DNA of 64,000 nucleotides from an uncultured Rhodospirillaceae bacterium (GTDB lineage Bacteria > Pseudomonadota > Alphaproteobacteria > UBA8366 > GCA-2717185). Under the pieces are notes generated by a model, which worked only from the letters and a program-made list of their open reading frames with translations, ran no database searches and was not told the origin of the DNA. The stretch lies in contig CAYYUG010000011.1 of NCBI GenBank assembly GCA_964474755.1, positions 8,698 to 72,697 on the forward strand, given 5' to 3'. The number at the start of each line of letters is the position of its first letter. Within the stretch, counting starts at the first letter, position 1. Shown one piece after another: positions 5,955 to 63,318 of the stretch. The position numbers and the translations under genes are program-made.

Positions 5955-7067
5955 CTAAGCTACCTGACTGTCCAACTCCCGCAAGATAGAGTCGCCCATT
6001 ACAGTTGTCGATACTCGAACTGCGCCCGGTGCCATGATATCCGAGGTGCGGACACCGGACTTGAGCACGGCCTGCACAGCGTTATCCACCAGACTGGCAT
6101 CCTCTTCCAAGTCGAAGGAATACCGCAATAACATGGCAAAGCTAAGCAGGCAGGCAAGTGGGTTGGCCATATCCTTGCCGGCAATGTCCGGCGCACTGCC
6201 ATGCACCGGTTCGTATAGCGCACGGCGGCGGCCGCTATCGTCCGGCGCCCCGAGTGTTGCCGAGGGCAGCATGCCAAGCGATCCAGTTAGCATAGCGGCA
6301 CAATCCGATAAAATATCACCAAACAGATTATCGGAGACAATGACGTCGAACTGGAGCGGATCGCGGACCAGCTGCATAGCGCAGTTATCTGCATACATAT
6401 GGCTTAGCTCCAGATCGGAATAAGATTCCTTGTGCAACTCGGTCACTACCTGACGCCACAATACGCCGCTTTCCATTACGTTGGCCTTCTCAACCGAGGT
6501 CACCTTGCCCCGGCGTTGTCGAGCAAGACCGAAGGCCACCGCGGCAACTCGGCGAATTTCCGATTCGGTATACGTCTGCGTGTCAAAACCACGGCGCTGT
6601 CCATCCTTAAGTGTCTCAATGCCGCGCGGTGTGCCAAAATAGATACCACCCGTCGATTCACGCACGATCATAAGATCGAGACCCTCAATCACCTCTGGCT
6701 TGAGAGACGAGGCGTCTAGCAGCGCGTTAAATGTCAGCGCAGGGCGCAGATTGGCGAACAGGTCGAGATCTTTACGTAGGCGTAGCAGTCCCATTTCCGG
6801 CCGCAAATCGCGCGGCGCATCATCATATTGCGGACCCCCCACCGAACCGAACAGTACCGCATCCGCGGCCATCGCATCCGCCATTGTTTCTTCGGTGACC
6901 GGGGTCCCGTGCGCGTCATAGGAGGCACCACCGACGAGCCCTTCCTTAACCTCGAATGTGACCTCTCGGCGCTGGTCAAACCAGTCGACGACCCGCCGCA
7001 CCTGAACCATAACCTCCGGTCCAATGCCATCGCCCGGCAAGATAAGAAGTGATTTGTTCGCTGCCAT
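5955..7067 (-). CDS. leuB: 3-isopropylmalate dehydrogenase
   Basis: 370 aa. [22 protein letters not shown] and full-length LeuB-like sequence. Confidence 0.95.
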
Positions 7068-7091: not shown

Positions 7092-8516
7092 CTATTCTAT
7101 TGAACGTTTTTCGAGATCACGCACATCGGTCAGACGCCCCGTCACCGCCGCTGCGGCGACCATCGCCGGGCTGGCCAGATGAGTTCGTCCCTCGCGGCCT
7201 TGCCTGCCCTCAAAATTTCGATTGGAGGTCGACGCACAGCGCTGCCCTGGTTGGATGTAATCACCATTCATGGCGACGCACATGGAGCAGCCCGGCTCGC
7301 GCCAATCAAATCCAGCCTCCTTGAAAATCTTATCGAGTCCACGCGCTTCAGCTTGTTCCTTGACCAGGCCCGACCCCGGGACCACCATCGCCTCCACACC
7401 GTCCGCAACTTTTCGGCCGCGCGCAATCGCAGCAGCAGCTTCCAGGTCCTCGATCCTGCTGTTAGTGCAGGACCCAATGAAAGCGCGGTCTATAGTCACT
7501 TCCGTCATCGCCGTACCCGGTGCTAACCCCATATAATCAAGCGAGCGCTGGATCATCCGTCGCCGATCGTCATTGAGGGCATCTGCCGGATCCGGCACTA
7601 CTCCATCGATCGGTGCGACTTCTTCTGGATTGGTGCCCCAGGTCACCTGCGGTGCTATCGAATCCGCCACGAGAGTTATTTCCTTATCAAAGAAGGCACC
7701 TTCGTCGGTCGGCAGTGTCTTCCAATATGCAACGGCTCGGTCCCAATCCGCGCCTTTCGGCGCCCGCGGTCGACCTTCGCAATAGGCGAACGTCGTCTCG
7801 TCCGGTGCAATCAGACCAGCACGTGCACCGGCTTCTATAGTCATGTTCGACACTGTCATCCGCCCTTCCATCGACAGTCCGCGGATCGCTGATCCGGCGA
7901 ACTCAATAACATGCCCCGTGCCCCCCGCCGTGCCAATCGCACCAATAATCGCAAGAATTATGTCTTTGCCGGTGCACCCAGCGGACAAGTCGCCATCGAC
8001 TGTCACCCGCATATTCTGCGGTTTTGGAGTGCGCAGCGTTTGCGTTGCCAGGATATGCTCGATTTCTGAGGTGCCTACCCCCATAGCGAAGGCCCCAAAC
8101 GCGCCATGGGTCGCGGTGTGACTATCACCACAGAATAGGGTCACGCCCGGAAGAGTGAACCCTTGCTCCGGCCCGATGACATGAACAATGCCCTGGCGCT
8201 TGTCCATCAAATCGAACAGCTCCACGCCGAACTCTTCGTAATCTTTATAGGCTTGTTCGACAATTTTGCGCGCTACAGGATCCTCAATCGCCTGATCGCG
8301 GGGATGCGTCGGGATGACATGATCCATCACACCCAGAACCTTGTTCGGGCAACGCACCTTGAGCCCAGCCATCCGTAACCCCTCGAAGGCCTGTGGCTGC
8401 ATCTCCATTATAAGCAGTCGATCAGTATAGAGGATGCTGAGGCCGTCCTCAGTGGTGTCAACAAGATGGGCATCCCATATCTTGTCGAACAGCGTACGCG
8501 GTGCCGCCATGGTCAT
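7092..8516 (-). CDS. aconitase-family hydro-lyase large subunit, divergent LeuC paralog
   Basis: 474 aa, roughly two-thirds identical by eye to the LeuC at 9156..10562. It keeps GDSHT and the Fe-S Cys motifs ([21 protein letters not shown]). It carries [13 protein letters not shown] and DHVIPT where the neighbour has [14 protein letters not shown] and DHNIAT. Its start overlaps the leuD stop (ATGA). Confidence 0.8.
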
Positions 8517-9136
8517 GCCGGTGGCGAACTATTAAGCCAAGGCTGCGCTTGGTTCTGTTGCGCCTCGAAACTATCAATCTTATCGCCCTTCTGCATAGTA
8601 AGACCGATATCGTCGAGCCCATCCAGCAGGCATTCGCGGCGGAAGGCATCCAGCTCGAACGACACAGTCACACCGTTCGGGCGCTTGATCTCCATGTTGA
8701 CCAGATCAATCGTCAGCTCCGGATTTTCCGTGTCGCTGGCGTCGGCCATTAGGGCGTCAAGATGCTCCTTGGAAATGCGGATCGGCAGGATACCGTTCTT
8801 GAAGCAGTTGTTGTAGAAAATGTCGGCGAAGCTAGTCGAGATGACGCACCGGATGCCAAAATCCAGCAGCGCCCATGGCGCGTGCTCACGCGAGGACCCG
8901 CATCCGAAATTATCGCCCGCCACAATAATTTTAGCATCCCGATAGGGGTCCTTGTTCAGAATAAAGTCGGGCTTCTCTCTGCCGTCCGGCTCGAAACGCA
9001 TCTCTTCGAACAGCACCTTGCCAAGACCGGTGCGTTTAATGGTCCGGAGGTGCAATTTGGGGATGATCTTATCGGTATCGATGTTAATCATGTCCATCGG
9101 CGCCGCGACGCCGGTCAGCGTGTTAAATTTATCCAT
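8513..9136 (-). CDS. leuD: 3-isopropylmalate dehydratase small subunit
   Basis: 207 aa. [26 protein letters not shown], typical LeuD. Confidence 0.93.
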
Positions 9137-9155
9137 CGCTCTATCTACCTCCCCC

Positions 9156-10562
9156 TTATCCGTTCAATAATTCACGTACATCGGTCAGCTTGCCGGTAAC
9201 CGCGGCCGCTGCTGCCATCGCCGGACTAACCAGATGGGTCCGACCGCCGCGCCCTTGCCGACCCTCAAAATTGCGGTTTGAAGTCGCAGCACAACGTTCG
9301 CCCGGCTGCAACTGATCGACATTCATCGCCAGGCACATGGAGCAACCTGGCTCGCGCCAATCGAATCCGGCATCGATCAGGATCTGAGCCAGGCCTTCCT
9401 GCTCGGCCTGTTGCTTGACCAAACCGGATCCTGGCACGATCAGGGTGCGGATGCCTTCCTTGACCTTGCGGCCCTCGGCGACCTCGGCAATTGCCCGAAT
9501 GTCTTCGATTCGACCGTTAGTGCAGGCGCCAACGAAGATCGTGTCGATCTCGACATCGGTCATTTTAGTGCCCGGTTTCAGACCCATATACTCACAAGCA
9601 CGTTTGACCGCCGCTGCCTTGTCCGAATTTGGTGCGTCCTTCGGATCGGGTACCACACCGGTTATCGGCACCACGTCCTCAGGGCTGGTACCCCAGGTAA
9701 CCTGCGGCACAATCTCGCTAACATCCAAGGTCGCTTCTTTATCGTAAGTCGCGCCTTCGTCAGACGGCAAGTTCTTCCAGTGAGCGACGGCAGCGTCCCA
9801 ATCTGCTCCCTTCGGGGCATAGGGCCGACCTTTGAGATATTCAAAGGTTTTATCATCTGGTGCAATCAATCCAGCACGCGCGCCAGCTTCGATCGTCATG
9901 TTGGAGACCGTCATACGACCTTCCATCGATAGGGATGTAATCGCAGGCCCGGTGTACTCAATCACGTGACCGGTGCCAGCTGCAGTGCCTATTTTGCCAA
10001 TTAGTGCCAAGATCAGATCCTTAGCGGTGCAGCCAAACGGCAGATCGCCATCCACAGTGATCCGCATGCTCTTGACCGGCGCCTGCAACAGCGTTTGGCT
10101 CGCCATAACATGCTCAACCTCCGAAGTGCCTATACCAAAGGCGAGCGCGCCGAGGGCGCCGTGCGTCGCAGTGTGACTATCGCCGCACACCAATGTCACG
10201 CCCGGCAGGGTAAAGCCCTGTTCCGGGCCAATGATATGGACGATACCGTTGCGCGGATCGTCAATCTCGAAAAGAGTGACACCGAAATCAGAACAGTTAC
10301 GCCGCAAGGTGTCGATCTGCAGCTGTGAATCCTCCGGGATTGCCTCCGTTCGGTCGGTAGCGATGTTGTGGTCAATCACCCCGAGGGTCAGGTCCGGGCG
10401 GCGCAACTTGCGGCCGGCTAGGGTCAGGCCCTCGAAGGGCTGCGGGCTGGTTACCTCGTGGATTATGTGACGATCGATATACAGCAGGCAGGTCCCATCT
10501 TCCTGCGTATTCACCACATGATTGTCCCAAATCTTTTCGAGAAGTGTGCGCGGCTTGGACAT
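9156..10562 (-). CDS. leuC: 3-isopropylmalate dehydratase large subunit (canonical motifs)
   Basis: 468 aa. [48 protein letters not shown] and [10 protein letters not shown] are all present. Confidence 0.93.
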
Positions 10563-47890: not shown

Positions 47891-48793
47891 ATGGCCACTG
47901 GAACACACGCCTACGAAGAAGACCCCAGGAACGAAACCGTTCTCATATACGTCAACGGCGAACTAGCGCCGCGCCCTGAGGCAAAAATTTCCGTCTTCGA
48001 CAGCGGTTTTCTGCTGGGCGATGGGATGTGGGAAGGCATGCGTCTACATAACGGTAAGCTCGCATTCCAAGATCAGCATCTAGGCCGGCTGTACGAAAAC
48101 CTGAAAGCCGTCGATATCGATATCGACATGTCGCAAGACGCGCTTACGGCGGAGATCATGCGTACCTGCAACGCCAACGATATGACAGACGACGTGCATA
48201 TCCGCCTGATCGTAAGCCGCGGCCTAAAGAAAACCCCCTATCAGCATCCGAATGCCAATGTTGGCGGTACGACGATTGTCATCATTCCGGAGTACAAGAA
48301 GGCACGGGAGGTCGAACCCCTCAGCCTCTTCACCGTGCATGTGCATCGTGGCACACCAGACACCCAGGATCCAAAATGGAACAGCCTGTCCAAGCTGAAC
48401 TGCATCGCCGCCTGTATCCAGGCCGATAAGGCAGGTGCTGACGAAGCGCTGATGCTCGACCCGCACGGCTTCGTTGCAACCTGCAACTCGACGCACTTCT
48501 TCATCGTGCGGCAGGGCGAAGTTTGGACCTCAACTGGTGACTACTGTCTGCCCGGCATCACGCGCGGCAACATCGTAGCGCTGTGCCGCGAAAACGATAT
48601 CCCAGTCTTTGAAAAAAACTTCTCTCTCACTGAAGTATATTGTGCAGAGGAAGCGTTCGTTACAGGCACCTTCGGTGGCTTGAGCCCAGTCGCCAGCGTC
48701 GATGGCAGGACCTTGGGGCCCGGAAAACTTGGCCCCATGACGATGCAGCTGCGCGAGCTTTATCGCAATCTGATCGAGCAGGACTGCGCATGA
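47891..48793 (+). CDS. class IV (fold-type IV) PLP aminotransferase (BCAT/DAAT/ADC-lyase family)
   Basis: ATG at 47891 after GGAG. VFDSGFLLGDGMWEG, the SKLNCI region and PGITRG. Confidence 0.8.
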   Translation: MATGTHAYEEDPRNETVLIYVNGELAPRPEAKISVFDSGFLLGDGMWEGMRLHNGKLAFQDQHLGRLYENLKAVDIDIDMSQDALTAEIMRTCNANDMTDDVHIRLIVSRGLKKTPYQHPNANVGGTTIVIIPEYKKAREVEPLSLFTVHVHRGTPDTQDPKWNSLSKLNCIAACIQADKAGADEALMLDPHGFVATCNSTHFFIVRQGEVWTSTGDYCLPGITRGNIVALCRENDIPVFEKNFSLTEVYCAEEAFVTGTFGGLSPVASVDGRTLGPGKLGPMTMQLRELYRNLIEQDCA

Positions 48794-49524
48794 CCGCGCC
48801 ACTGCGCATCGCAATGTGGTCCGGCCCACGCAACATTTCCACCGCGATGTTGCGATCCTTCGGCAACCGGGCCGACACATTCGTCACCGACGAACCATTT
48901 TACGGCCACTATCTACGACAGACCGGACTGGACCACCCCGGACGCGACGAGGTTATCGCAGCACAGCCAGATGATTGGCGAAAGGTGGCAAAATGGCTTT
49001 GCGGACCTGTACCAGAAGGCCAAGCCATCTGGTACCAGAAGCATATGTCACATCACTTGCTGCCGGAGATTGAACAGGAATGGCTCAGTGGCCTCTCCCA
49101 CTGCTTCTTAATCCGCGATCCACGCGAAGTACTGGTGTCTTACACACAAGTGCGCGAGACCGTAACGCTCGAAGATATCGGGCTGCCGCAACAGGCGGCT
49201 CTATTCAACCGACTGCTCGACGAAAAGGGAACACCGCCGCCAGTGCTTGATGCTAAGGACGTACTCAGCGATCCAGAAAAATTGTTGCGTGCGCTGTGCG
49301 AGGCCATCGGCATGACGTTCACCGAGGCAATGCTATCCTGGCCACCAGGGCCGCGGACGACCGACGGCGTCTGGGGTAAATACTGGTACAGTTCAGTGAA
49401 AAATTCGAAGGGTTTCGTCGCCTACAAACCGAAGCAAGTCCGTCTCTCACCTAATCTGGAAGAACTGGCTGCCAAATGTGCCCCCTATTATGAGCGCCTG
49501 CACACCCACCGGCTGGGACAGTAA
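48790..49524 (+). CDS. sulfotransferase-like P-loop protein (family assignment from memory)
   Basis: The ATG at 48790 overlaps the upstream stop (ATGA). WSGPRNISTAMLRSF resembles a PAPS-binding 5'-PSB loop. Confidence 0.45.
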   Translation: MTAPLRIAMWSGPRNISTAMLRSFGNRADTFVTDEPFYGHYLRQTGLDHPGRDEVIAAQPDDWRKVAKWLCGPVPEGQAIWYQKHMSHHLLPEIEQEWLSGLSHCFLIRDPREVLVSYTQVRETVTLEDIGLPQQAALFNRLLDEKGTPPPVLDAKDVLSDPEKLLRALCEAIGMTFTEAMLSWPPGPRTTDGVWGKYWYSSVKNSKGFVAYKPKQVRLSPNLEELAAKCAPYYERLHTHRLGQ

Positions 49525-52635: not shown

Positions 52636-53823
52636 TTAGCTAATCGAACCTATCCCGTAGACACCAGTAAGTAATTGGCCCGTCTCGAACCGATCCAGCC
52701 CGTAGCCTCTGATGTCCACATCGGTCGCCTGACCGAGGGCGGTTTGAGCCTGCACCTTACCGATCGCTGGTGCCAGCTTGAAGCCATGGCCGGAGAACCC
52801 AAAATTCACCATCAGTCCGCCGATCCCCGGCACGAATCCTAACACCGGGTTCCAGTCCGGCGTGATATCGTAGGCTCCAACCCAACTGTCTGTGAACTCC
52901 GCGCTGGCGAAACTAGGCATACGGTGTGCGACCAAACCGCCCATATGCAAAATGAAATCATCGCCAACATTTTCGTCAATTGTATCAGCATCGGTGATCG
53001 GGTCGCCATGATCGCCAGTCCCCACCAAGACAACGCCGCCGGTTGCCGGCCGGAAATACATCTTATTATCCGTTGCTAAGTCTTTAACAATCGGCAGCAT
53101 GCGTCCGTATTCCGATCCCGACCGCATAGTCAGCACTGTGTGGCGAGAGACGTCTAGCGGAATGTCGAGGCCTATTTCATCAGTCAGGGACCGCGACCAG
53201 GGACCGATTGCGACGATTACGGTTTCTGCATACAAAATACCCTGGACCGTCTTCACACCCTTTACTTTGCCGCCCTCCAAAATCAAGGAGGTAACGGAGC
53301 ACTCCGTTTTTACCGTAATCCCCTTACGCCGAGCGGCGTTGAGAAAGCTAGTCGTAGTCAGGTAGGGATCAGCGTAACCGGAATCCGGTTCGTAGCCGAT
53401 CACATGAGCATCGTCTACCGACAGCAACGGATGCCGTTCAAGTGCCTCCTCCTTGGAAATTTCATACGTATCGGCACCAACGCCCGCCTGCATAGCTAGA
53501 TTGTCTGCTAGCTTGTTCGCGAAATCGCCTTCAGGCGCGACGATGATATACCCGGAATTTGTAAAGCCGGATTCCGCCTCATCATCTTCCAACCAGTCCT
53601 TGAATTGGCGGAACATTTCAATGCTTTTTACCGTCAGTTGCGTGTTGGTCGGCACGGAATAGTGACTGCGGATGATGGCACAGGACTTCGCGGTACCGCC
53701 GCTGCAAACCGGCCCTCGATCGACAACACAGACATTCAGTTTGCCAAGCTTAGCCAAATGAAACGCGGTTGACGCCCCTATCACACCGGCTCCGACTACG
53801 ATCGCATCAAACGTTTCTGTCAT
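52636..53823 (-). CDS. FAD-dependent oxidoreductase (DAO family)
   Basis: ATG at 53823 after AAAGGA. DAIVVGAGVIGASTAFHLAKLG and the SGHGFKLAP C-terminal motif. Confidence 0.8.
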   Translation of the reverse strand: MTETFDAIVVGAGVIGASTAFHLAKLGKLNVCVVDRGPVCSGGTAKSCAIIRSHYSVPTNTQLTVKSIEMFRQFKDWLEDDEAESGFTNSGYIIVAPEGDFANKLADNLAMQAGVGADTYEISKEEALERHPLLSVDDAHVIGYEPDSGYADPYLTTTSFLNAARRKGITVKTECSVTSLILEGGKVKGVKTVQGILYAETVIVAIGPWSRSLTDEIGLDIPLDVSRHTVLTMRSGSEYGRMLPIVKDLATDNKMYFRPATGGVVLVGTGDHGDPITDADTIDENVGDDFILHMGGLVAHRMPSFASAEFTDSWVGAYDITPDWNPVLGFVPGIGGLMVNFGFSGHGFKLAPAIGKVQAQTALGQATDVDIRGYGLDRFETGQLLTGVYGIGSIS

Positions 53824-53934
53824 ATCGACGTCCTTTATCGTTTCACTGCACGTTAACCGCGCCCCGGAGCGGGTGCAATTGCACCGCGCCAGTCGCTGTA
53901 ATAACTTCGGACTAATCGAAAAAGGGAGACAGTG

Positions 53935-54813
53935 ATGTCGAAGGGTAAGCAATTACGCGATTTGATGACCAGTGATGGAATGGTCCTAGCACCGGGCGCC
54001 TATGACGGGCTGACGGCAAAACTAGTCGCCCAGGCCGAATTCTCGGCCGTCTACATGACCGGGGCAGGCACGTCCTGCAGCCATGGCTACCCCGATTACG
54101 GACTAATCACGATGAGTGAGATGGTCGCCAACGCTGGCCGTATGGCGGACGCGGTAAATCAGCCTGTGATTTCTGATGCCGACAACGGGTATGGCAACGA
54201 ACTCAATACTTTTCGCACGATTCAGGAGTTCGAGAAGGCAGGTGTCGCAGGGGTTCATTTGGAAGATCAGGCATTCCCAAAACGTTGTGGCCATCTGGAA
54301 GACAAAGAACTAATCCCGCTTGACGACTATCTAGCCAAAATTCGCGCCGCAGCCGACGCCAGACGCGATCCAAACTTCGTCATCATCGCGCGCACAGACG
54401 CACGTGCCTCGCTCGGCTTTGAGGAGGCGGTCAAGCGGTGTAACGCGGCGTTGCAGGCCGGCGCCGACGTGGCGTTCCTGGAAGCACCGCAGAACATGGA
54501 TGAGATCGCCGCAGCACCACGCGAAATTAACGGACCCTGCCTGTTAAACGTGGTACGAGGCGGCAAAACGCCGGAGATCGAATTCGTACAGGCAAAAGAA
54601 ATGGGCTACCGCATCGCCATCGTCCCGGGCCTGCTTTTCGTCCAGGTTATCGGAGCATGTGAAAAAATACTGGCCGCGATGAAGGCGGAAGGGAAGCATC
54701 CAGCACCAATCACCGAAATGAGCCCAGGGGGAGCCTTCGGCCGGGCCGGCGCATCTGACTGGGATCCCCGACGCGAGATCTACCGGGAGGCACCACAGCA
54801 AGCCGCCGAATGA
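53935..54813 (+). CDS. isocitrate lyase/PEP mutase superfamily C-C lyase (methylisocitrate-lyase/oxaloacetate-decarboxylase-like)
   Basis: DADNGYG and HLEDQAFPKRCGH (K-R-C-G-H lyase-type loop). ATG at 53935 lies 5 nt after AAGGGAGA. Confidence 0.78.
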   Translation: MSKGKQLRDLMTSDGMVLAPGAYDGLTAKLVAQAEFSAVYMTGAGTSCSHGYPDYGLITMSEMVANAGRMADAVNQPVISDADNGYGNELNTFRTIQEFEKAGVAGVHLEDQAFPKRCGHLEDKELIPLDDYLAKIRAAADARRDPNFVIIARTDARASLGFEEAVKRCNAALQAGADVAFLEAPQNMDEIAAAPREINGPCLLNVVRGGKTPEIEFVQAKEMGYRIAIVPGLLFVQVIGACEKILAAMKAEGKHPAPITEMSPGGAFGRAGASDWDPRREIYREAPQQAAE

Positions 54814-55967
54814 CTATCACGGGAAGTCGCGCGTCAGATCTAGCGACTCGGGACGGGCTGAGCGCGCTTGAGCGCGCAAAGCGCCAACCGCTCATATTGG
54901 GCTTGTTTCTGCCGATTCAAAATGGTGGCTGGACCATCTCGTCTGCAGCGCGCAATACGGACTGGTCCTTCGACTATAACGCGAAACTGATCGTGAAGGC
55001 GGAAGAGGCCGGCTTTGATCTTGCCTTCGGTCTTGCCCAGTGGCTTGGTTCCGAGGGACACGGCGGTGCCACCAAATACCGTAAATTCTCAATCGATCCG
55101 CTGCTAGTCACCTCCGGTGTTGCGGCGCTCACCCGCAACATCATGCTGATCTCCACAGTACACGTATTGTACGGTTGGCATCCGCTGCATCTGGCTAAGC
55201 TCGGCGCCACCATGGATCATATGACCGGCGGCCGATGGGGCCTGAACCTGGTAACCGGATTCCGGCCAAACGAAATTGAAATGTTCGGGCTCGACCCAAT
55301 ACCGCGTGACGAACGTTATGTCCGGGCAGCAGAGTTCACAGACATACTGGATACGTTGTGGCGATCGGAAGAAGATATTAGCTGGGAAGGGGACTACTGG
55401 TCTCTGAAAAGCGCATACGTCTCGCCCAAACCAGTGCATGGCCGCCCGATCCTGGTCAACGCTGGCAGCTCCAAGGCGGGTCTTGCCTATGCTGCGAAAT
55501 ATTCCGACCTGATTTTTATCACCAGCCCCGGTGGCGCGGAAATCAGTGCTGCGCTGAAAACGCTGCCTGCACACACGGCAGAGATTAAGGCTTTGGCCGC
55601 TGAACAGGGCCGAGAAATTCGAACCGTTATTAATCCGCACGTCATCTGCCGAGATACGGAGCGTGAAGTGGATCAGGTTTGCAAGGCTATTCTCGTCGGC
55701 GAGGACGCGCCCGCTGTCAACAGCCTGGTAGGCACTATGCGCCAAGGCGACCAGTCATCCTGGCGCGGCCATGAAAGACGGCAGCGAATAATCGGCGGTA
55801 ATGTTCAAATTTTTGGCACTCCAGAGCAGGTCGTCGAGCAGTTTGCCGCCCTAAAAGACGCCGGTTGCGATGGTTTGCAGATCAATTTTTTCGATTTTGC
55901 GCCAGACTTAGCCTATTTCGCAAAAAATGTCCTACCGTTGATGAAACAGGCCGGCCTGCGAGTCTAG
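54810..55967 (+). CDS. LLM-class flavin-dependent monooxygenase (RutA/SfnG-like subfamily)
   Basis: 385 aa. LGLFLPIQNGGWTIS...DWSFDYN and MTGGRWGLNLVTGF resemble RutA/SfnG. ATGA overlap with the upstream lyase gene. Confidence 0.8.
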   Translation: MTITGSRASDLATRDGLSALERAKRQPLILGLFLPIQNGGWTISSAARNTDWSFDYNAKLIVKAEEAGFDLAFGLAQWLGSEGHGGATKYRKFSIDPLLVTSGVAALTRNIMLISTVHVLYGWHPLHLAKLGATMDHMTGGRWGLNLVTGFRPNEIEMFGLDPIPRDERYVRAAEFTDILDTLWRSEEDISWEGDYWSLKSAYVSPKPVHGRPILVNAGSSKAGLAYAAKYSDLIFITSPGGAEISAALKTLPAHTAEIKALAAEQGREIRTVINPHVICRDTEREVDQVCKAILVGEDAPAVNSLVGTMRQGDQSSWRGHERRQRIIGGNVQIFGTPEQVVEQFAALKDAGCDGLQINFFDFAPDLAYFAKNVLPLMKQAGLRV

Positions 55968-56033
55968 TTGGTAGCTTTACAAAATACCCGAAAAACCGGA
56001 TAGCGACACAACGCTTGCACCTTCAGCGTGATA

Positions 56034-58478
56034 CTAGCTATGCAGTTTTTCGCCGCCGGGATCATATACCGGTCGGAAACTCGCGGTCGCGGCGAACCGC
56101 CGGCTAGCAATTTCGACCTCAAATCCACCAGCCGACACCATATCATCAACGCTCTTTTCACCCGCCTGCACCAATCCTATCGCAACAGTGCGGTCGACAG
56201 TGTGGCCGAAGGCCGCACTAGACACTTGCCCGACAAAGGCACCATTCCATAGGATCGGTTCGCCACCGATTGCTAGTGCCTCCTTCTCCACCACAGTGAA
56301 TATAACGAGCCTTTTGCGCAGGCCCACTTCCCTCTGTCGCCGCAGGGCTTCCTGGCCGATGAACGGCGTGTCGAGGTCAATTTTAGCCGCAAAGCCCAAC
56401 CCCGCTTCCAACGGTGTGGTCTCCGGTGTCAAATCATGGCCCCAAGCGCGGTAACCCTTCTCGAGCCGCAGACAAGTCATGGCGGTGGTGCCGGCGTCGC
56501 GCAAGCCAAAGTCTCCGCCCACCTCAAACAACATGTCATATACGGCACCGGCGAAACTGATAGGCATGAAGAGTTCCCAACCAAGTTCACCGACATATGA
56601 TAACCGGGCCGCCCGGACCGGCCAGCGCCCCACCGTGATGTCTTGCCAGGACATGTAGGGGAAATCCGCGTTAGATAGGACCCCATCGCTTACGGCACCA
56701 ATGAGATCACGAGCCTTTGGCCCAGCAAGCGCCAGCACCGCAGTGCTCTCTGTCACGTCTTCGATGGTGACCCTTTCATTCCTGAGATTTCGCGTAACCC
56801 AATCGTGGTCGCGGACCGGTTGCGCTGTGCTGGTGACAATCAAATAGTCGTCCGTCGCATAGCGGAAGACAGTGCAATCGGATTCGTAGCCGCCGCGCTC
56901 ATTTAGCATACCGGTGTAGATTACGCGGCCCGGCGCAGCCGACATATCGTTCGCGCAAAGCCGCTGCATCAGCCTCTCCGCTTCTAGGCCTCGCACTCGG
57001 AGCTTGCCGTAGCTGCTCTGATCGAACAAGGCGACATCATTACGTGCAACGGCATGCTCCGCGGCAACATAGTGCTCGAAGTCCGGTCGAGAGAACGTCG
57101 GAGATATGTTAACGGCCACACCATCAGTGGCAAAGAAGCTCGGTCGCTCCCACCCCATTCGCTGGCTGAAATGCGCCCCTTTCATCTTCTGGCGTTCGTG
57201 CAGCGGGCCGTGGCGGACGTCCCGCGCAGACTTAAACTCACGGTGCGGCGCTTCGGTGACGTAGTGCATCGAAAGCACTTCCGGTGCCCGTTCCCGCAAC
57301 ATACGCATATTGTTGTGAAACGGCGCAAAACGACGAATGTCGACCGGCCACAGATCGAGCGTTGGCTCACCCGAAATGATCCATTCGGCCAGCCAGCGTC
57401 CTGCGCCACCACTGCTTGCCATACCGGCCGAATTCATGCCGCAGCCGAGAAAAAACCCGCGCAACTCTGGGGATTCGCCAAGCAGGAAGCGTCCATCTGG
57501 CGTAAAGCTTTCTGGCCCATTCAACAGCATGCGGGCCTCAGCCTGCTCCAAAGCCGGGACGCGGTGTATACCGTTTTTCAGCATTGGTTCAAAATGATCC
57601 CAATCCTCGGCCAATAGATCAAAGGCAAAATCCTTTGGCAGCTGGTTGAGACCGATGGCGCGCGCATTCGGTTCGAAGCTACCAACTAGCAGGCCGCCAA
57701 CATCGTCGCGCAGATAGAGATGCGCATCGTGATCGCCCAGTGTCGGCAAATGCCCTTCGACCTCTTCCAACGGCTGAGTTAGCAGATAAAAATGCTCGCA
57801 GGCGTGCAACGGCGCCGAAACGCCGGCCAGTGCGGCGACCGAATGTGACCACAGTCCAGCGCAGAGCGCCACCGCCTCGCAAGCGATGGTGCCGTGAGGC
57901 GTTTCTACTCCGGTGACTTGTCGGTTCTCAACCGTAAAGCCAGTGACCGGCGCATCCTCCACAATATGTGCACCATTCGCTCGCGCCGCCTTAGTCAGCG
58001 CGGCGCAGAGATCGCTTGGATTGACGCGACCGTCTTCCGGGGACCAGACCGCACCAACCAAATCGTCGGTTCGGATCAAAGGCCACAATCGACCCGCCTC
58101 CTCCGGCGAGACAACGTTCACCTCAATGCCGAATAGCCTGGCCAGCGAGGCTTGGCGCTTGATGTGTATGAAACGTTCCTTGTTTGTCGCAAGACTGAGG
58201 CTGCCAGTTTGCAACCAACCGGTCGACTGCCCAGTCTCTTCCTCCAGACTCTGATATAGCTTGGTGCTGTACTGGATCATCCGTGTCAGGTTCTCGCTGG
58301 AGCGCAATGCACGCACCTGAGCCGCGGAGTGCCAGCTCGTACCCGAAGTAAGCTGCTTGCGCTCAAGCAGAACAACATCGCGACACCCCGCCTTAGCAAG
58401 GTGATAAGCCGTGCTGCATCCCATGACACCACCGCCAATAACAACAACACTAGCGTTGGTTGGGAAAATGTTAGACAT
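56034..58478 (-). CDS. dimethylglycine/sarcosine dehydrogenase-like enzyme (DAO FAD domain fused to GcvT aminomethyltransferase domain)
   Basis: 814 aa. VVVIGGGVMGCSTAYHLAKAG N-terminus and a folate-binding GcvT-like C-terminal half (SYVGELGWELF). Confidence 0.85.
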   Translation of the reverse strand: MSNIFPTNASVVVIGGGVMGCSTAYHLAKAGCRDVVLLERKQLTSGTSWHSAAQVRALRSSENLTRMIQYSTKLYQSLEEETGQSTGWLQTGSLSLATNKERFIHIKRQASLARLFGIEVNVVSPEEAGRLWPLIRTDDLVGAVWSPEDGRVNPSDLCAALTKAARANGAHIVEDAPVTGFTVENRQVTGVETPHGTIACEAVALCAGLWSHSVAALAGVSAPLHACEHFYLLTQPLEEVEGHLPTLGDHDAHLYLRDDVGGLLVGSFEPNARAIGLNQLPKDFAFDLLAEDWDHFEPMLKNGIHRVPALEQAEARMLLNGPESFTPDGRFLLGESPELRGFFLGCGMNSAGMASSGGAGRWLAEWIISGEPTLDLWPVDIRRFAPFHNNMRMLRERAPEVLSMHYVTEAPHREFKSARDVRHGPLHERQKMKGAHFSQRMGWERPSFFATDGVAVNISPTFSRPDFEHYVAAEHAVARNDVALFDQSSYGKLRVRGLEAERLMQRLCANDMSAAPGRVIYTGMLNERGGYESDCTVFRYATDDYLIVTSTAQPVRDHDWVTRNLRNERVTIEDVTESTAVLALAGPKARDLIGAVSDGVLSNADFPYMSWQDITVGRWPVRAARLSYVGELGWELFMPISFAGAVYDMLFEVGGDFGLRDAGTTAMTCLRLEKGYRAWGHDLTPETTPLEAGLGFAAKIDLDTPFIGQEALRRQREVGLRKRLVIFTVVEKEALAIGGEPILWNGAFVGQVSSAAFGHTVDRTVAIGLVQAGEKSVDDMVSAGGFEVEIASRRFAATASFRPVYDPGGEKLHS

Positions 58479-58725
58479 GAGGATCTCTAAAAATTTTTGA
58501 ACCGCTATCGAAGGTCGTTTTCAGGACACGACGATGCACCGTTACTCCCACAAATGCCATTCATTCATCTCTACTTTGTCGGAAATTTCAGACCTGTTGC
58601 AGTTATAACGGTAAAGCCTAATCATTTCGCCGGTCAGCACGACCTGATCCTTGCTATACACTCACTCAACCCTGAAGGCCGATGCTTTGCACCACTGCCA
58701 CCGATAGTCATTGGTAGAAAGTACT

Positions 58726-58739
58726 ACGCAAGCTTGCGT
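58726..58739. terminator. perfect 14-bp palindrome, bidirectional terminator-like
   Basis: ACGCAAGCTTGCGT, flanked by TGTGTATTTTGA on the plus strand and AGUACUUUCU on the minus strand. It lies about 65 nt after the 2-hydroxyacid dehydrogenase stop. Confidence 0.4.
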
Positions 58740-58802
58740 TGTGTATTTTGATCCGTGCCGCTCCGCAAATGCAGCCACCCCGTTCTTTGCCGGTATCGTC
58801 GT

Positions 58803-59726
58803 CTACTTAGGTTCTTCGAGCCCATCGCGTAGTTTCTCTATTCCCATACGCAGAAGCCTCTCCGCAGCTTCCGGCGAGGCCCAGGCAGCGTGCGGGGTCA
58901 GTGTAACGTTATCCAGTTCGCAGAACTGGTTATCCGCTGGAAGCGGTTCATCACCGAATACGTCGAGTGCAGCATAACCGATACGGCCCTGGGCCAGTAG
59001 ATCAGCGAGCGCCACCTCATCAACCAGAGCCCCGCGGGCCGCATTGACCAACACAGCATGTGGCTGTAGCAGTTCGAGCCGACGCCGGTCGATGATCTTT
59101 TCGGTTTCCGGAACCAGGTCTATATGCAAGGTAACCACGTCTGACCGACGCATTAGATCGTCTATCTCGACCGCCTCGCAGTCGACTTCGCCAGACACAC
59201 CACTACGGTTCCATGCGATCACCTTCATTCCAAGCGCAGCCCCAAGCTGCGCCATCGTGCAGCCGACACCACCTAGGCCGATCACACCCAGGGTCTTGCC
59301 TTCCAGTTCGAACCCACCATCGGGCCGCCAGGTACCGCTCCGCACTTCTCGGTCGAGTTGCACGACACGTCGCACGCCAGAAAGTATCAGTGCCAGGGTG
59401 TGTTCCGCGATGGTGCGATTTCCATAGCCAGCAACCCCACAGACAGCAATCCCGCACGTTGCTGCGGCATCCAAGTCAACATAGCTGGCAACCCCGGTGC
59501 CTAGAAAGACTATGACTTTGAGGTCCGGCAACACCTGCAGCAGCTCGGAAGACATCTTCGTGTGACCGTTGAGCACGCCGGTGTACCCCACCAACAGCTC
59601 CGGCAAGTCTACCGGATCTGGATCGCCAATGTGGATATCCAGGAATGGCAAAATATCCGAGATTCCTGGGGTGGTGTCATAGAGCGCCTTTAGCTCAGCA
59701 CTGCAATCGAAGTAGAGCGCCCGCAT
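58803..59726 (-). CDS. D-isomer-specific 2-hydroxyacid dehydrogenase (NAD-binding)
   Basis: 307 aa. GVIGLGGVG, NAARG and TPHAAW (catalytic His). Starts 12 nt after the selenoprotein gene stop. Confidence 0.85.
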   Translation of the reverse strand: MRALYFDCSAELKALYDTTPGISDILPFLDIHIGDPDPVDLPELLVGYTGVLNGHTKMSSELLQVLPDLKVIVFLGTGVASYVDLDAAATCGIAVCGVAGYGNRTIAEHTLALILSGVRRVVQLDREVRSGTWRPDGGFELEGKTLGVIGLGGVGCTMAQLGAALGMKVIAWNRSGVSGEVDCEAVEIDDLMRRSDVVTLHIDLVPETEKIIDRRRLELLQPHAVLVNAARGALVDEVALADLLAQGRIGYAALDVFGDEPLPADNQFCELDNVTLTPHAAWASPEAAERLLRMGIEKLRDGLEEPK

Positions 59727-59738
59727 AATGCTGATGCC

Positions 59739-60632
59739 CTATGATGCGGCGATAAAACTGCGTTTGTCTTGCACCTGACGCGCCCGCCGCGCCTCGCCCT
59801 CAGCACGCAACGCGTTGCGATTTTCCGGGCCGATATAGTTATAGACGTGCCGCCAGCCCTCGCCTCCCGGCCAGAGGACCGGCGAATGCACCGTGGTACG
59901 TGGTCCAGAAGCGGACTCAAGCAGGTCGATCGCTTGAGCGGCTATAAGCGCTTGCGCTGCACGGTCGTAGGGAGGACCAGCCGGATTACCGAGTGGGAAG
60001 TCGGTGAAGACCAACCTTGGAACCCCACAATGTTCGACAATGTCGCGACCTGACCCAATGATCACAGTCGGAATACCAGCTTCTTCGATCGCACGTGCAA
60101 CCAAACTCACGGTTTGGTGGCAGACTGGTCATATGGGGACCAAAACGGCAGCGTCAGCCTGATCCTCCTGGCACAGCCGCACGATATGCGCGGCGTCTTG
60201 GTCAAGGGTCTGACGGTGGCTATAGGTCGTCGGGACTCCATGAAAGCGCTCTGTCAGCCCTCCTATGCGGCTTTCCGTCGCCAAAGCGTGTAGCGCCAGC
60301 ACTGGTAGATAACTCTCCCTGTCTCGCATATGGGTCGTTTCCTTATCCCAGGCGAGATATTCGGTGTGCAGATCTGCCGGCGTGTCCTTAGTCAGCCCGC
60401 TCCAAACCTCCTTGAGCTTGCGGTTTCCATCCTTCGGCCCACCAGGCGGGCTCGAAGTGGTAACGATCACGACTCTGCTCTCCGTCAGAGAATTTTTCAG
60501 AGTTGTGAAGGGCACGTCGTCATATCGAGACCACTGATAGTCGTTGTTGTAGCCGAGCGCACGGTAATAGCGCCGCGTGCGCTCCATATAACCGACCGGA
60601 TCAGTCCTACCAATCTCTGTATTTAGGTTCAC
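59739..60632 (-). CDS. selenocysteine-containing GrdB/PrdB-like reductase-family protein (UGA-Sec at 60131..60129, residue 168 of 297)
   Basis: ORFs 60129..60632 and 59739..60110 are in the same frame and are separated only by one TGA. Read-through gives ...QADAAVLVPI-U-PVCHQTVSLVARAIEEAGIPTVIIGSGRDIVEHCGVPRL.... The 'M' of the second ORF is an internal GTG (Val). A SECIS-like hairpin follows the TGA. The N-terminal start is uncertain (GTG at 60632 or ATG at 60587). Confidence 0.75.
60096..60122 (-). promoter_or_regulatory. candidate bacterial SECIS stem-loop
   Basis: The mRNA reads UGA-CCAGUC-UGCCACCAAAC[CGUGA]GUUUGGUUGCA. That is an 11-position helix with one C/U mismatch and a perfect 6-bp apical stem. 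The 5-nt loop contains G and U at +18..+22 after the UGA. Confidence 0.6.
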
Positions 60633-61353
60633 GCTTCACTCCATCCACATAAAGTTGCGACATATTGATTGAACAAGGGGACCCAGTCTAGGAATTCGCT
60701 AGCTCTAATTATTAAGGAAGGCTGCGAGCACCGCCAGCGGCTCGCTGCTGGCAAAGGCTTCCTCTTGGCCAACCATGCCTGCCCTAACCGCCTCGTCGAT
60801 TCTCGCGAAACTATAGTTTGGTGTGTTTCCAACAGAAAGAAGACGTGCCGGCGAATTCCGCTGCGATCTCACAGGCTTTCTACACGAAATTTTCGACCGT
60901 GATTAGATGGCTAACTAGACCAGGTAGTTGGGCTCTTTTGACAAACGGATCGAGGCCTAAAACATTGAGTGGCCACACTCAGCCATCGACGAAAGATCGC
61001 CGTTGGAAACCACATGCACTCACCGACCCGCGGATATGATCGAAAAGGCTCTCACCATTTGTATCCTGCGATGATAAGATTGCGTAAATGGATTTACGGG
61101 GAATTTATCTCGGCAATTTTATTGATCGGGACGGCAAGGCACAGAGTGTGACCATCATGACCTAATGGGGATTCCAAGGTATCACTTTTCAATACGAAAG
61201 AATTTTTGATCTGTATGGAAAATTGGAGACCATACCAACGACATTCATGATAATTAAAAAAAAATTTATTCCTTTTATGGGCGAGCCACTGATGATACCA
61301 GCATGAAAATAGGACATGGCAGAATGACAATATTTCGGTGGGAAATTTAGTTT

Positions 61354-63318
61354 ATGTGCGGCTTTGCCGGATTCTTATCTCTCCAGAGTTATGGCTCACA
61401 GAAACATAGCGCAGACCGATTAACGAAAATCGCCCATCAAATGGGCGATGTTATGATACATCGTGGCCCGGATGGCGGCGGCATATGGACCGATCCCAGG
61501 GTAGGCCTTGCGCTATCCCATCGCCGTCTGTCGATCATTGATCTGTCAAAGGCTGGACGCCAGCCCATGGTTTCCGGACAAGGACGGATGGCAATCAGTT
61601 ATAATGGCGAGGTCTACAACGCGAACGAATTGCGTGCGGAATTACAAGACATCGGCGTTGCGTTTCAGGGGCATTCGGACACAGAGGTCATACTGGAAAG
61701 CTGCGTTCAATGGGGCGTCGTCAACACAGTACAGAAACTTGTTGGTATGTTCGCCTTTGTGCTTTGGGATACGGTGGAAAAACAGCTTTGGCTGGTGCGC
61801 GACCGGCTTGGGATAAAGCCGCTTTATTACACGATTACACCGGATCAGACATTGATCTTTGGATCAGAGCTTAAAGCGCTCCGCGCTCATCCCAATTGCC
61901 CCAGTGAGATTAACCGCGATGCCGTCTCCGCTTTTATGCGACACAACTATATTCCCGGACCATTCAGTATTTTCAAGGGAATCCAAAAGCTTCAACCTGG
62001 ACATATACTGAAGCTAAATATCGATGATTACGAACCAAGTGTGGAGCCTTATTGGTCACTGGACGACGCAGCGCGCCATGGCGAGACCTATCCGTTCAAG
62101 GGAGACGAACCAGCGGCGCTTGAAGCCCTAGAGGCCCTGTTCGCTGACGCGGTGTCCCGGCGCATGATCGCCGATGTGCCCTTGGGAGCATTTCTGTCGG
62201 GAGGAATCGACAGCTCCACCGTAGTCGCCTTGATGCAGGCGAACAGCACCCAGCCTGTTCGCACATTTTCCATTGGTTTTTCCGAGGACGGCTTCGACGA
62301 AGCCGTTCATGCCAAGGCGGTCGCTGCGCATATCGGCACAGATCACACCGAAATGTATGTGACATCGGAAGAAGCAAGAGCGGTGATTCCAAATTTGCCC
62401 GATTACTACGACGAACCTTTTGCCGACTCTTCGCAAATTCCAACCTATTTAGTTTCCGCCATGACACGGGACCACGTCACCGTTGCTTTGTCCGGTGATG
62501 GCGGCGATGAGTTGTTCACTGGTTACAATCGATATTTTCAGGCGCAGAAAATTAAACGCATGCTTACCCTTGTGCCCAGCTCTTTACGTGCTGCGGCGGG
62601 ATCAACAATCCGCGCTTTTCCGCCGTCGTTCTGGAATGATGTTTTCAAGCTGGTTCCACCGTCAAAACGACCGCCTCAGGCAGGCGATAAAATGCACAAA
62701 CTGTCGGAGGTGCTTAACACAGACCAAGACGGGTTTTATCGCCGAATTATCAGCCATTGGCCACAACCGGATGAAATCGTAATTGATGGTAGAGAACCCA
62801 AAGGCATTATCTGGGACGACGGGTTGCAACAGCGCATTCCTGATTTTATACGGCGCATGCAATATCTCGATACGCTAACCTATCTTCCAGACGACATCCT
62901 CACAAAGGTGGATCGTGCGAGCATGGCGGTGTCGTTAGAGGCCCGGCTGCCAATATTGGACCACCGATTGGTGGAATTCGCTTGGCGTTTGCCAGAAGCC
63001 ATGAAGATAAGAAACGGAGAAGGGAAATGGTTATTGCGCCAGTTGCTTTATAAATATGTGCCCCGCACTTTAATCGATCGGCCAAAAATGGGATTTGGCG
63101 TACCCATTGGGGATTGGATGCGGGGGCCCTTGCTGGATTGGGCCGAAGATTTGCTTTCTGAGTCGACATTTAAGAAGCACGGGCTTTTGCATGCCGCGCC
63201 AGTTTTAGAAAAATGGCGAGATCACAAATCGGGCCGACATAACTCGCAATATCTATTATGGAACGTGCTAATGCTGCACGCCTGGGCGGAAAAATATTGC
63301 GCTAGAGGCGCAACGTGA
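61354..63318 (+). CDS. asnB: asparagine synthase (glutamine-hydrolysing) family amidotransferase
   Basis: 654 aa. MCGFAGF N-terminal nucleophile Cys, LSGGIDSS PP-loop; the long form often found in polysaccharide loci. Confidence 0.9.
   Translation: MCGFAGFLSLQSYGSQKHSADRLTKIAHQMGDVMIHRGPDGGGIWTDPRVGLALSHRRLSIIDLSKAGRQPMVSGQGRMAISYNGEVYNANELRAELQDIGVAFQGHSDTEVILESCVQWGVVNTVQKLVGMFAFVLWDTVEKQLWLVRDRLGIKPLYYTITPDQTLIFGSELKALRAHPNCPSEINRDAVSAFMRHNYIPGPFSIFKGIQKLQPGHILKLNIDDYEPSVEPYWSLDDAARHGETYPFKGDEPAALEALEALFADAVSRRMIADVPLGAFLSGGIDSSTVVALMQANSTQPVRTFSIGFSEDGFDEAVHAKAVAAHIGTDHTEMYVTSEEARAVIPNLPDYYDEPFADSSQIPTYLVSAMTRDHVTVALSGDGGDELFTGYNRYFQAQKIKRMLTLVPSSLRAAAGSTIRAFPPSFWNDVFKLVPPSKRPPQAGDKMHKLSEVLNTDQDGFYRRIISHWPQPDEIVIDGREPKGIIWDDGLQQRIPDFIRRMQYLDTLTYLPDDILTKVDRASMAVSLEARLPILDHRLVEFAWRLPEAMKIRNGEGKWLLRQLLYKYVPRTLIDRPKMGFGVPIGDWMRGPLLDWAEDLLSESTFKKHGLLHAAPVLEKWRDHKSGRHNSQYLLWNVLMLHAWAEKYCARGAT

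Follow-up and report, generated by a model that had tools for sequence, protein, structure and literature searches.

What does an in-frame TGA mean when the reading frame continues, well conserved, on its far side? The question arises on the minus strand of a 64-kb stretch of DNA (64,000 nt; here called the window, with positions in its own numbering) from an uncultured Rhodospirillaceae bacterium. There, the open reading frame (ORF) 60632..60129 (-) begins with GTG, encodes 167 residues and ends in a TGA at 60131..60129; beyond this TGA, a further 129 codons can be read in frame before a TAG at 59741..59739. Our analysis leads us to propose that 60632..59739 (-) is, with high probability, a single gene encoding a selenocysteine (Sec)-containing protein. 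The second ORF listed in this region starts at a GTG (60110..60108) that lies inside a hairpin loop and lacks a purine-rich Shine–Dalgarno motif ahead of it. An initial annotation of this DNA had described these two ORFs as sharing one frame, the second lacking a Shine–Dalgarno sequence of its own, and had read VLVPI-[TGA]-PVCHQTVSLVARAIEEAGIPTVIIG across the junction; the sequence of 60632..59739 agrees with the former, and the same translation was obtained here (...AAVLVPI-[TGA]-PVCHQTVSLVARAIEEAGIPTVIIG or, in wider context, ...QADAAVLVPI-[TGA]-PVCHQTVSLVARAIEEAGIPTVIIGSG...). The joined product comprises 297 residues (∼33 kDa) with the junction motif U-P-V-C-H-Q, and its junction peptide is predicted to be ...AAVLVPI-U-PVCHQTVSLVAR.

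A search with the joined sequence gave 4015 homologs. Those of about 290 residues share 50–57% identity with the joined product over 91–98% of its length and span the junction. All full-length homologs (16 in one alignment and 53 in another) have Cys in the TGA column, within the motif C-P-V-C-H-Q. The initial annotation had read the TGA as the Sec of a U-x-x-C motif and had proposed an alignment to Cys-containing homologs as a check; this alignment bears the reading out, with Cys opposite the TGA in every full-length homolog. The C of the U-x-x-C motif, Cys171, is invariant in all 82 Sec forms and in all Cys homologs. The seven closest protein matches (81–99% identity) are 167–171 residues long, and each of the six that were aligned ends at the same ...LVPI. 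At the DNA level, close relatives on nine contigs (from marine metagenomes and a Rhodospirillaceae metagenome-assembled genome) have the TGA followed by the same conserved frame in nine of nine cases. On all nine, the gene callers report a product of 167 residues and another of 121 or 123, as anticipated by the initial annotation, which had warned that the gene would be split.

A genome scan restricted to one genome per species returned 80 loci, 79 of which carry TGA at the U-P-V-C-H-Q position, the exception being Dankookia rubra with TGC. This set includes Rhodospirillaceae, Reyranella, Hyphomicrobiaceae, Burkholderiales, Pseudomonadales, Azotimanducaceae and Myxococcota; the closest genomes are those of uncultured marine Rhodospirillaceae, at 88% protein identity. 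Since cultured isolates are among the carriers (Reyranella soli NBRC 108950, Rhodospirillales bacterium URHD0017 and Rhodospirillaceae bacterium SYSU D60007), the TGA is not an artefact of metagenome assembly.

The two halves of the gene are equally constrained as coding sequence. Comparison of the window with five relatives gave ratios of nonsynonymous to synonymous substitution rates (dN/dS) of 0.04–0.12 upstream of the TGA and 0.06–0.09 downstream of it (with dS >1). An AlphaFold model of a Cys homolog with 57% identity (P0002; predicted local distance difference test score 77, predicted template-modelling score 0.81) displays a single α/β domain, to the sheet of which both parts of the protein contribute strands. 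Strand 151–155 and helix 161–174 flank the Cys that corresponds to Sec168, and the second Cys sits at the N-terminus of this helix; C-x-x-C redox sites usually have this geometry. A sequence search of the PDB gave chance matches only (E > 0.2), and a Foldseek search with the model found no related solved structure. The view of the initial annotation that this is one gene is thus upheld by full-length Cys homologs that cross the junction and by the single domain modelled for one of them.

Downstream of the TGA, the coding sequence contains a hairpin, the core of which starts 10 nt past the UGA, with 17 nt between the UGA and its 5-nt loop. In its extended form, UGCCACCAAAC-CGUGA-GUUUGGUUGCA (60122..60096), ten of the 11 stem positions are paired, the same count as had been given initially. 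Its 27 nt have a folding energy of -10.7 kcal/mol (z = -2.7), a value equalled by two of 200 shuffled sequences. The hairpin was compared with criteria for the bacterial selenocysteine insertion sequence (SECIS) taken from the bSECIS model (PMC13188914) and falls within all of the published constraints: an apical loop of 3–9 nt (here 5 nt, C-G-U-G-A), an upper stem of 4–16 bp (7 bp), a G in loop position 1 or 2 followed by G or U (G-U in positions 2–3), a spacing of 16–37 nt between the UGA and the loop (17 nt) and a minimum free energy of ≤ -7.5 kcal/mol (-10.7 kcal/mol).

Comparative evidence was drawn from a gap-free alignment of 82 distinct Sec-form sequences, in essentially all of which the 7-bp core ACCARAC-CGUGA-GUYUGGU is paired. 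Two pairs vary in a compensatory manner. Pair 27–37, which joins the third position of a Gln codon (A/G) to the first position of a Leu codon (U/C), is GC in 49 sequences, AU in 31, GU in two and unpaired in none. Pair 24–40, between the third position of the His codon and the first position of a Val/Ile codon, is CG in 77, UA in four, UG in one and again never unpaired, and the covarying change here alters the amino acid from Val to Ile. The covariation score was reached by none of 500 shuffles, and sliding the 3' partners by 1–3 columns reduced pairing from 84% to 24–44%. Outside the core, the three outer pairs of the 11-bp stem are more variable: pair 20–44 is G-C in 80 of the 82 sequences, pair 21–43 is formed in 77 and pair 19–45 in 36, and position 22–42 is never paired. 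Synonymous sites inside the element are fixed: over the 82 sequences, codons +6 to +9 (Thr ACC, Val GUG, Ser AGU, Leu YUG) have a third-position entropy of about 0 bits, compared with 1.4–2.0 bits at flanking fourfold-degenerate codons. In six Cys-form genes, the peptide encoded at the hairpin is almost identical to that of the Sec forms; all seven core pairs are present in 76/82 Sec forms versus 0/6 Cys forms, and the Ser codon is AGC in all six Cys forms, whereas 81 of the 82 Sec forms have U at its third position. The SECIS-like character that the initial annotation had ascribed to this hairpin is therefore supported both by covariation across the 82 sequences and by the published bSECIS criteria.

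Several observations weigh against a Sec-encoding gene. The fold is unexceptional in a longer context (66 nt, z = -0.96; about -0.9); the single sequence being unremarkable in this respect, the hairpin was judged on the comparative evidence. An Rfam scan of 58000..62000 (E ≤ 10) returned chance matches only and no SECIS family; this is weak evidence, and as expected, because bacterial SECIS elements are gene-specific and poorly represented in Rfam. Conservation of the nucleotides is owed in part to the conserved peptide H-Q-T-V-S-L-V, and six of the seven core pairs are still present in two Cys forms, those at loci L090 (Bradyrhizobium, 6001..6876) and L095 (6001..6879). Neither the 64-kb window nor the fetched flanks of 60 related loci contain selA, selB, selD or tRNA-Sec, and the incorporation of selenium is a step that we infer. 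As for the two Cys forms, their hairpins fold at -12.1 and -9.7 kcal/mol with a 9-nt loop, and may be either relics of a SECIS lost after conversion of Sec to Cys or a consequence of the coding constraint on H-Q-T-V-S-L-V.

Could the TGA instead be a true stop separating two genes, of 167 and 123 residues, with the GTG at 60110 serving as an independent start for the second? Gene callers annotate every related contig in this way, and the window shows no Sec machinery. However, the second ORF would have to start without a Shine–Dalgarno sequence from a codon within the hairpin loop, the homologs that carry Cys at this position are single proteins of 290 residues and the modelled fold is one domain with sheet strands from both halves. 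Moreover, perfect conservation of the frame and of the 21-nt 'gap', which codes for P-V-C-H-Q-T, extends to 79 genomes. We regard two separate genes as highly improbable. Still less credible is a TGA that arose by a mistake in sequencing or assembly or by an inactivating mutation, which would make this a Cys-form gene or a pseudogene. A single substitution would suffice to turn TGC or TGT into TGA, but the same TGA recurs in 79 of 80 independent genomes and in nine metagenomic contigs at 50–99% protein identity, the part downstream of it evolves at a dN/dS of 0.06–0.09 and a covarying hairpin stands at the right distance.

A genuine PrdB subunit of D-proline reductase, which would work with a pyruvoyl-containing PrdA to convert D-proline to 5-aminovalerate, is an alternative that concerns the function of the Sec-containing protein. 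Among NCBIfam models the best match is indeed TIGR04483 (PrdB; residues 102–240, E = 2.7e-18, 66.3 bits), the U-x-x-C motif is held in common and the literature labels the family 'proline reductase PrdB'. Against this, 66 bits compares with an equivalog cut-off of 300 bits, and residues 102–240 alone align. No PrdA-, PrdC- or GrdA-like gene product was found among the 43 Pfam-scanned ORFs of the window, although a distant genomic location is possible, and no PrdA-, PrdC-, GrdA- or GrdE-like neighbour was found across 84 loci. When the ORFs within about 6 kb were clustered across these 84 loci, no conserved partner gene emerged; the best neighbour clusters, an enoyl-CoA hydratase and an ABC ATPase, reached 14 loci each at scattered offsets. 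The hosts, as far as physiology can be judged from taxon names, are mostly aerobic Alpha-, Beta- and Gammaproteobacteria and not Stickland fermenters. We therefore consider a true PrdB subunit of D-proline reductase unlikely.

The remaining profile matches place the protein more broadly. Weaker NCBIfam matches over residues 102–240 involve GrdH, GrdF, GrdB and TIGR01918; the GrdB family match has E = 2.6e-08, and TIGR01918 scores 33.2 bits against a cut-off of 65.45. A Pfam scan of the window protein gave no match, PF07355 being absent at E ≤ 0.01. Two homologs (P0111 and P0118) do carry a precomputed PF07355 match, which sets the relationship to PF07355/selenoprotein B at the superfamily level. 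Judged by these profiles, the window protein belongs to the proteobacterial branch of the GrdB/PrdB selenoprotein-B superfamily. The GrdB/PrdB-like assignment of the initial annotation accordingly stands at the superfamily level (PrdB, E = 2.7e-18) and does not extend to either family, the scores lying below the family cut-offs.

The following course of translation is proposed for the Sec-encoding gene. Translation would begin at the GTG at 60632, and the ribosome would reach the UGA at codon 168. The 7-bp hairpin with its CGUGA loop, situated within the C-H-Q-T-V-S-L-V codons, would act as a bacterial SECIS element and would be expected to recruit SelB-GTP with Sec-tRNA(Sec), on the assumption that SelB binds it. 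The UGA would then be decoded as selenocysteine and translation would run on to the TAG at 59741. In the product, Sec168 and Cys171 of U-P-V-C most likely form a selenol/thiol redox pair cycling via a selenenylsulfide, as has been proposed for PrdB and GrdB. Our best guess, from sequence similarity and the motif, is a PrdB/GrdB-like selenol/thiol reductase in which a nucleophilic Sec would be resolved by Cys171 and which would act on a different substrate.

The elements of the gene and of its same-strand neighbours are collected in the table.

Features of the predicted selenoprotein gene and its same-strand neighbours (window numbering)
Feature	Position	Strand	Remarks
Shine–Dalgarno-like GGAG	60639..60642	-	6 nt upstream of the GTG; read in the sequence, putative function
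GTG start codon of the selenoprotein gene	60630..60632	-	Kept in relatives L001–L009 (VNLNT/VDLNT)
Codons 2–167, N-terminal part	60132..60629	-	Called as a 167-aa ORF of its own
In-frame TGA, predicted Sec codon 168 (U of U-P-V-C)	60129..60131	-	Aligned with an invariant Cys
TGC, Cys171, predicted resolving Cys of U-x-x-C; outer 5' arm of extended hairpin	60120..60122	-	
Extended hairpin	60096..60122	-	11 stacked positions, one universal C.U/C.C mismatch; outermost pair unconserved
Core SECIS-like hairpin	60100..60118	-	7-bp stem ACCAAAC/GUUUGGU, loop CGUGA (60111..60107)
Codons 169–297, C-terminal part	59742..60128	-	123-aa GTG ORF in the mechanical ORF list; in-frame conservation in all relatives
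TAG, true stop of the 297-aa product	59739..59741	-	Read in the sequence
D-isomer 2-hydroxyacid dehydrogenase	58803..59726	-	Starts 12 nt downstream; Pfam, NCBIfam
Dimethylglycine/sarcosine-dehydrogenase (DMGDH)-like gene, 814 aa	56034..58478	-	DAO + FAO_M + GCV_T; Pfam, NCBIfam

The window as a whole is ordinary alphaproteobacterial chromosome, with sdhA/C, leuB/C/D, trmD, rimM, ffh, ftsY, pgk and various amidases and oxidoreductases. Linkage of the selenoprotein gene to the DMGDH-like gene is confined to the window's own clade (seven loci). The 2-hydroxyacid dehydrogenase lies between the two in the window and at loci L008 and L010–L012, and not at L001 or L005, and it is possibly an operon partner, in the window's clade only. 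In the L001 (10894..11523) and L005 (10894..11122) lineages a short gap takes the place of the dehydrogenase, with a 44-aa ORF in the L001 gap, which looks like a clade-specific gain or loss inside the cluster. A promoter and terminator scan of 55900..61400 gave results at chance level. In the marine Rhodospirillaceae clade, the same-strand cluster with the 2-hydroxyacid dehydrogenase and the DMGDH-like gene may point to a part in the breakdown of methylated amines or osmolytes.

Farther along, the block 52636..55967 keeps its synteny with the selenoprotein/DMGDH cluster throughout the close relatives (L001–L009) and comprises genes for a DAO-family amine oxidase, a PEP-mutase/methylisocitrate-lyase-like protein and a luciferase-like (SfnG/NtaA-like) monooxygenase; block and cluster may together form a larger catabolic island. 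The divergent upstream neighbour, 61354..63318 (+), encodes an asparagine-synthase-type amidotransferase, which is matched best by the model for the XrtA/PEP-CTERM system amidotransferase (613 bits, below the cut-off of 817). Relatives have varying polysaccharide-synthesis genes upstream of the selenoprotein gene, so the upstream side looks like a variable region. Elsewhere in the window, 7092..10562 (-) holds two aconitase-family large-subunit ORFs (7092..8516 and 9156..10562) around one small-subunit ORF (8513..9136), adjoined by an isopropylmalate-dehydrogenase-like gene at 5955..7067.

Use of TGA was also surveyed across the window. It is the ordinary stop of 17 of the 43 other, Pfam-supported genes, which excludes a reassigned genetic code for UGA. 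When in-frame TGAs flanked on both sides by 90 or more open codons were sought, only the selenoprotein gene was convincing. Another TGA, at 48791..48793 (+), ends a class-IV aminotransferase ORF whose frame remains open for 105 codons beyond it; this stretch lies within the sulfotransferase ORF 48640..49524, which is read in a different frame. The TGA is probably not a recoding site.

The protein belongs to a family with a history. Forty-two U-x-x-C selenoprotein genes named 'proline reductase PrdB' made up the third most abundant family in the Sargasso Sea (Zhang, Fomenko and Gladyshev, 2005; PMC1088965), 'proline reductase' selenoproteins were noted in Anaeromyxobacter and Geobacter genomes in 2006 (PMC1794560), and the Global Ocean Sampling (GOS) selenoproteome contained 235 Sec forms versus 110 Cys forms of the 'PrdB' family (Zhang and Gladyshev, 2008; PMC2398784). 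The Sargasso and GOS papers listed the family by homology under the name PrdB, with gene context not analysed (PMC1088965, PMC2398784). One entry of the Sargasso supplement, AACY01093821 (...LLVPLuPVCHQTVGLVARHLESNGIPTVIAGSARDIIEQCGVPRFLFTDFPLGNP...; PMC1088965), shares 51% identity with the window protein over 176 residues (E = 7e-64), with its Sec opposite the TGA. The family and its Sec codon have thus been known for some twenty years (since 2005); the recoding event is re-identified here and raises no new question.

The value of joining the two ORFs, which restores a 297-residue enzyme, is in correcting a systematic annotation split. On each of the related contigs examined, the gene has been split or cut short, and the 167-aa fragment enters the protein databases. 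In a protein search, the closest relatives consequently appear only as fragments of 167–171 residues, and only the Cys forms look complete. The 'PrdB' selenoprotein family is among the most abundant in the surface ocean and is widespread in soil Proteobacteria too; its function rests on a weak analogy with clostridial PrdB. With no conserved neighbour and nothing resembling PrdA, PrdC, GrdA or GrdE nearby, function is not simply transferable from clostridial D-proline reductase. The want of a PrdA-like partner suggests that the name 'PrdB' is misleading, and as a label for this abundant orphan family it is probably wrong. One may speculate, and we do so tentatively, that the 'proline reductase PrdB' family of the literature is a stand-alone selenoenzyme with a substrate of its own, found in mostly aerobic Proteobacteria, and not a proline reductase. 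If so, it might carry out, for example, a reductive C–N cleavage needing neither PrdA nor GrdE.

Comparison with known systems places both the hairpin and the protein. The start of the hairpin resembles that of the minimal SECIS of Escherichia coli fdhF, which lies about 11 nt past the UGA. Like the bacterial SECIS consensus of the bSECISearch model, the window hairpin has a small apical loop with G then U, a short upper stem and a spacing of 17 nt. Unlike this consensus and the fdhF element, no bulged U is evident in its 7-bp core, and its sequence is unrelated to the E. coli SECIS elements.

PrdB is the selenoprotein of clostridial D-proline reductase (Kabisch et al., 1999, as cited in PMC13188914). 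The window protein is homologous to it (TIGR04483) across some 140 residues, the Sec site among them, with a U-x-x-C motif (here U-P-V-C), and in both cases Sec insertion is ascribed to a hairpin within the coding region. In contrast to clostridial PrdB, the window protein has about 100 additional N-terminal and about 55 additional C-terminal residues that are unaligned, its hosts are Proteobacteria and Myxococcota instead of amino-acid-fermenting Firmicutes, and no prdA, prdC or other prd gene is near its gene. Similarity to GrdB, GrdF and GrdH (PF07355, TIGR01918) is weak and confined to the C-terminal third (profile positions 258–403 of 431). The U-x-x-C redox motif is again shared with GrdB, but the window protein is about 140 residues shorter and below the family cut-offs, grdA, grdC, grdD and grdE are absent from the vicinity of its gene and it has U-P-V-C-H-Q where GrdB has U-x-x-C-x-x-C (PMC13188914). 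The closest counterpart is the Sargasso/GOS 'PrdB' family, with which the window protein has in common the junction peptide LLVP[LI]-U-PVCHQTV[SG]LVAR, the same Sec position and a preponderance of Sec forms over Cys forms; it differs from that family in nothing essential, and the window gene is one more member of it.

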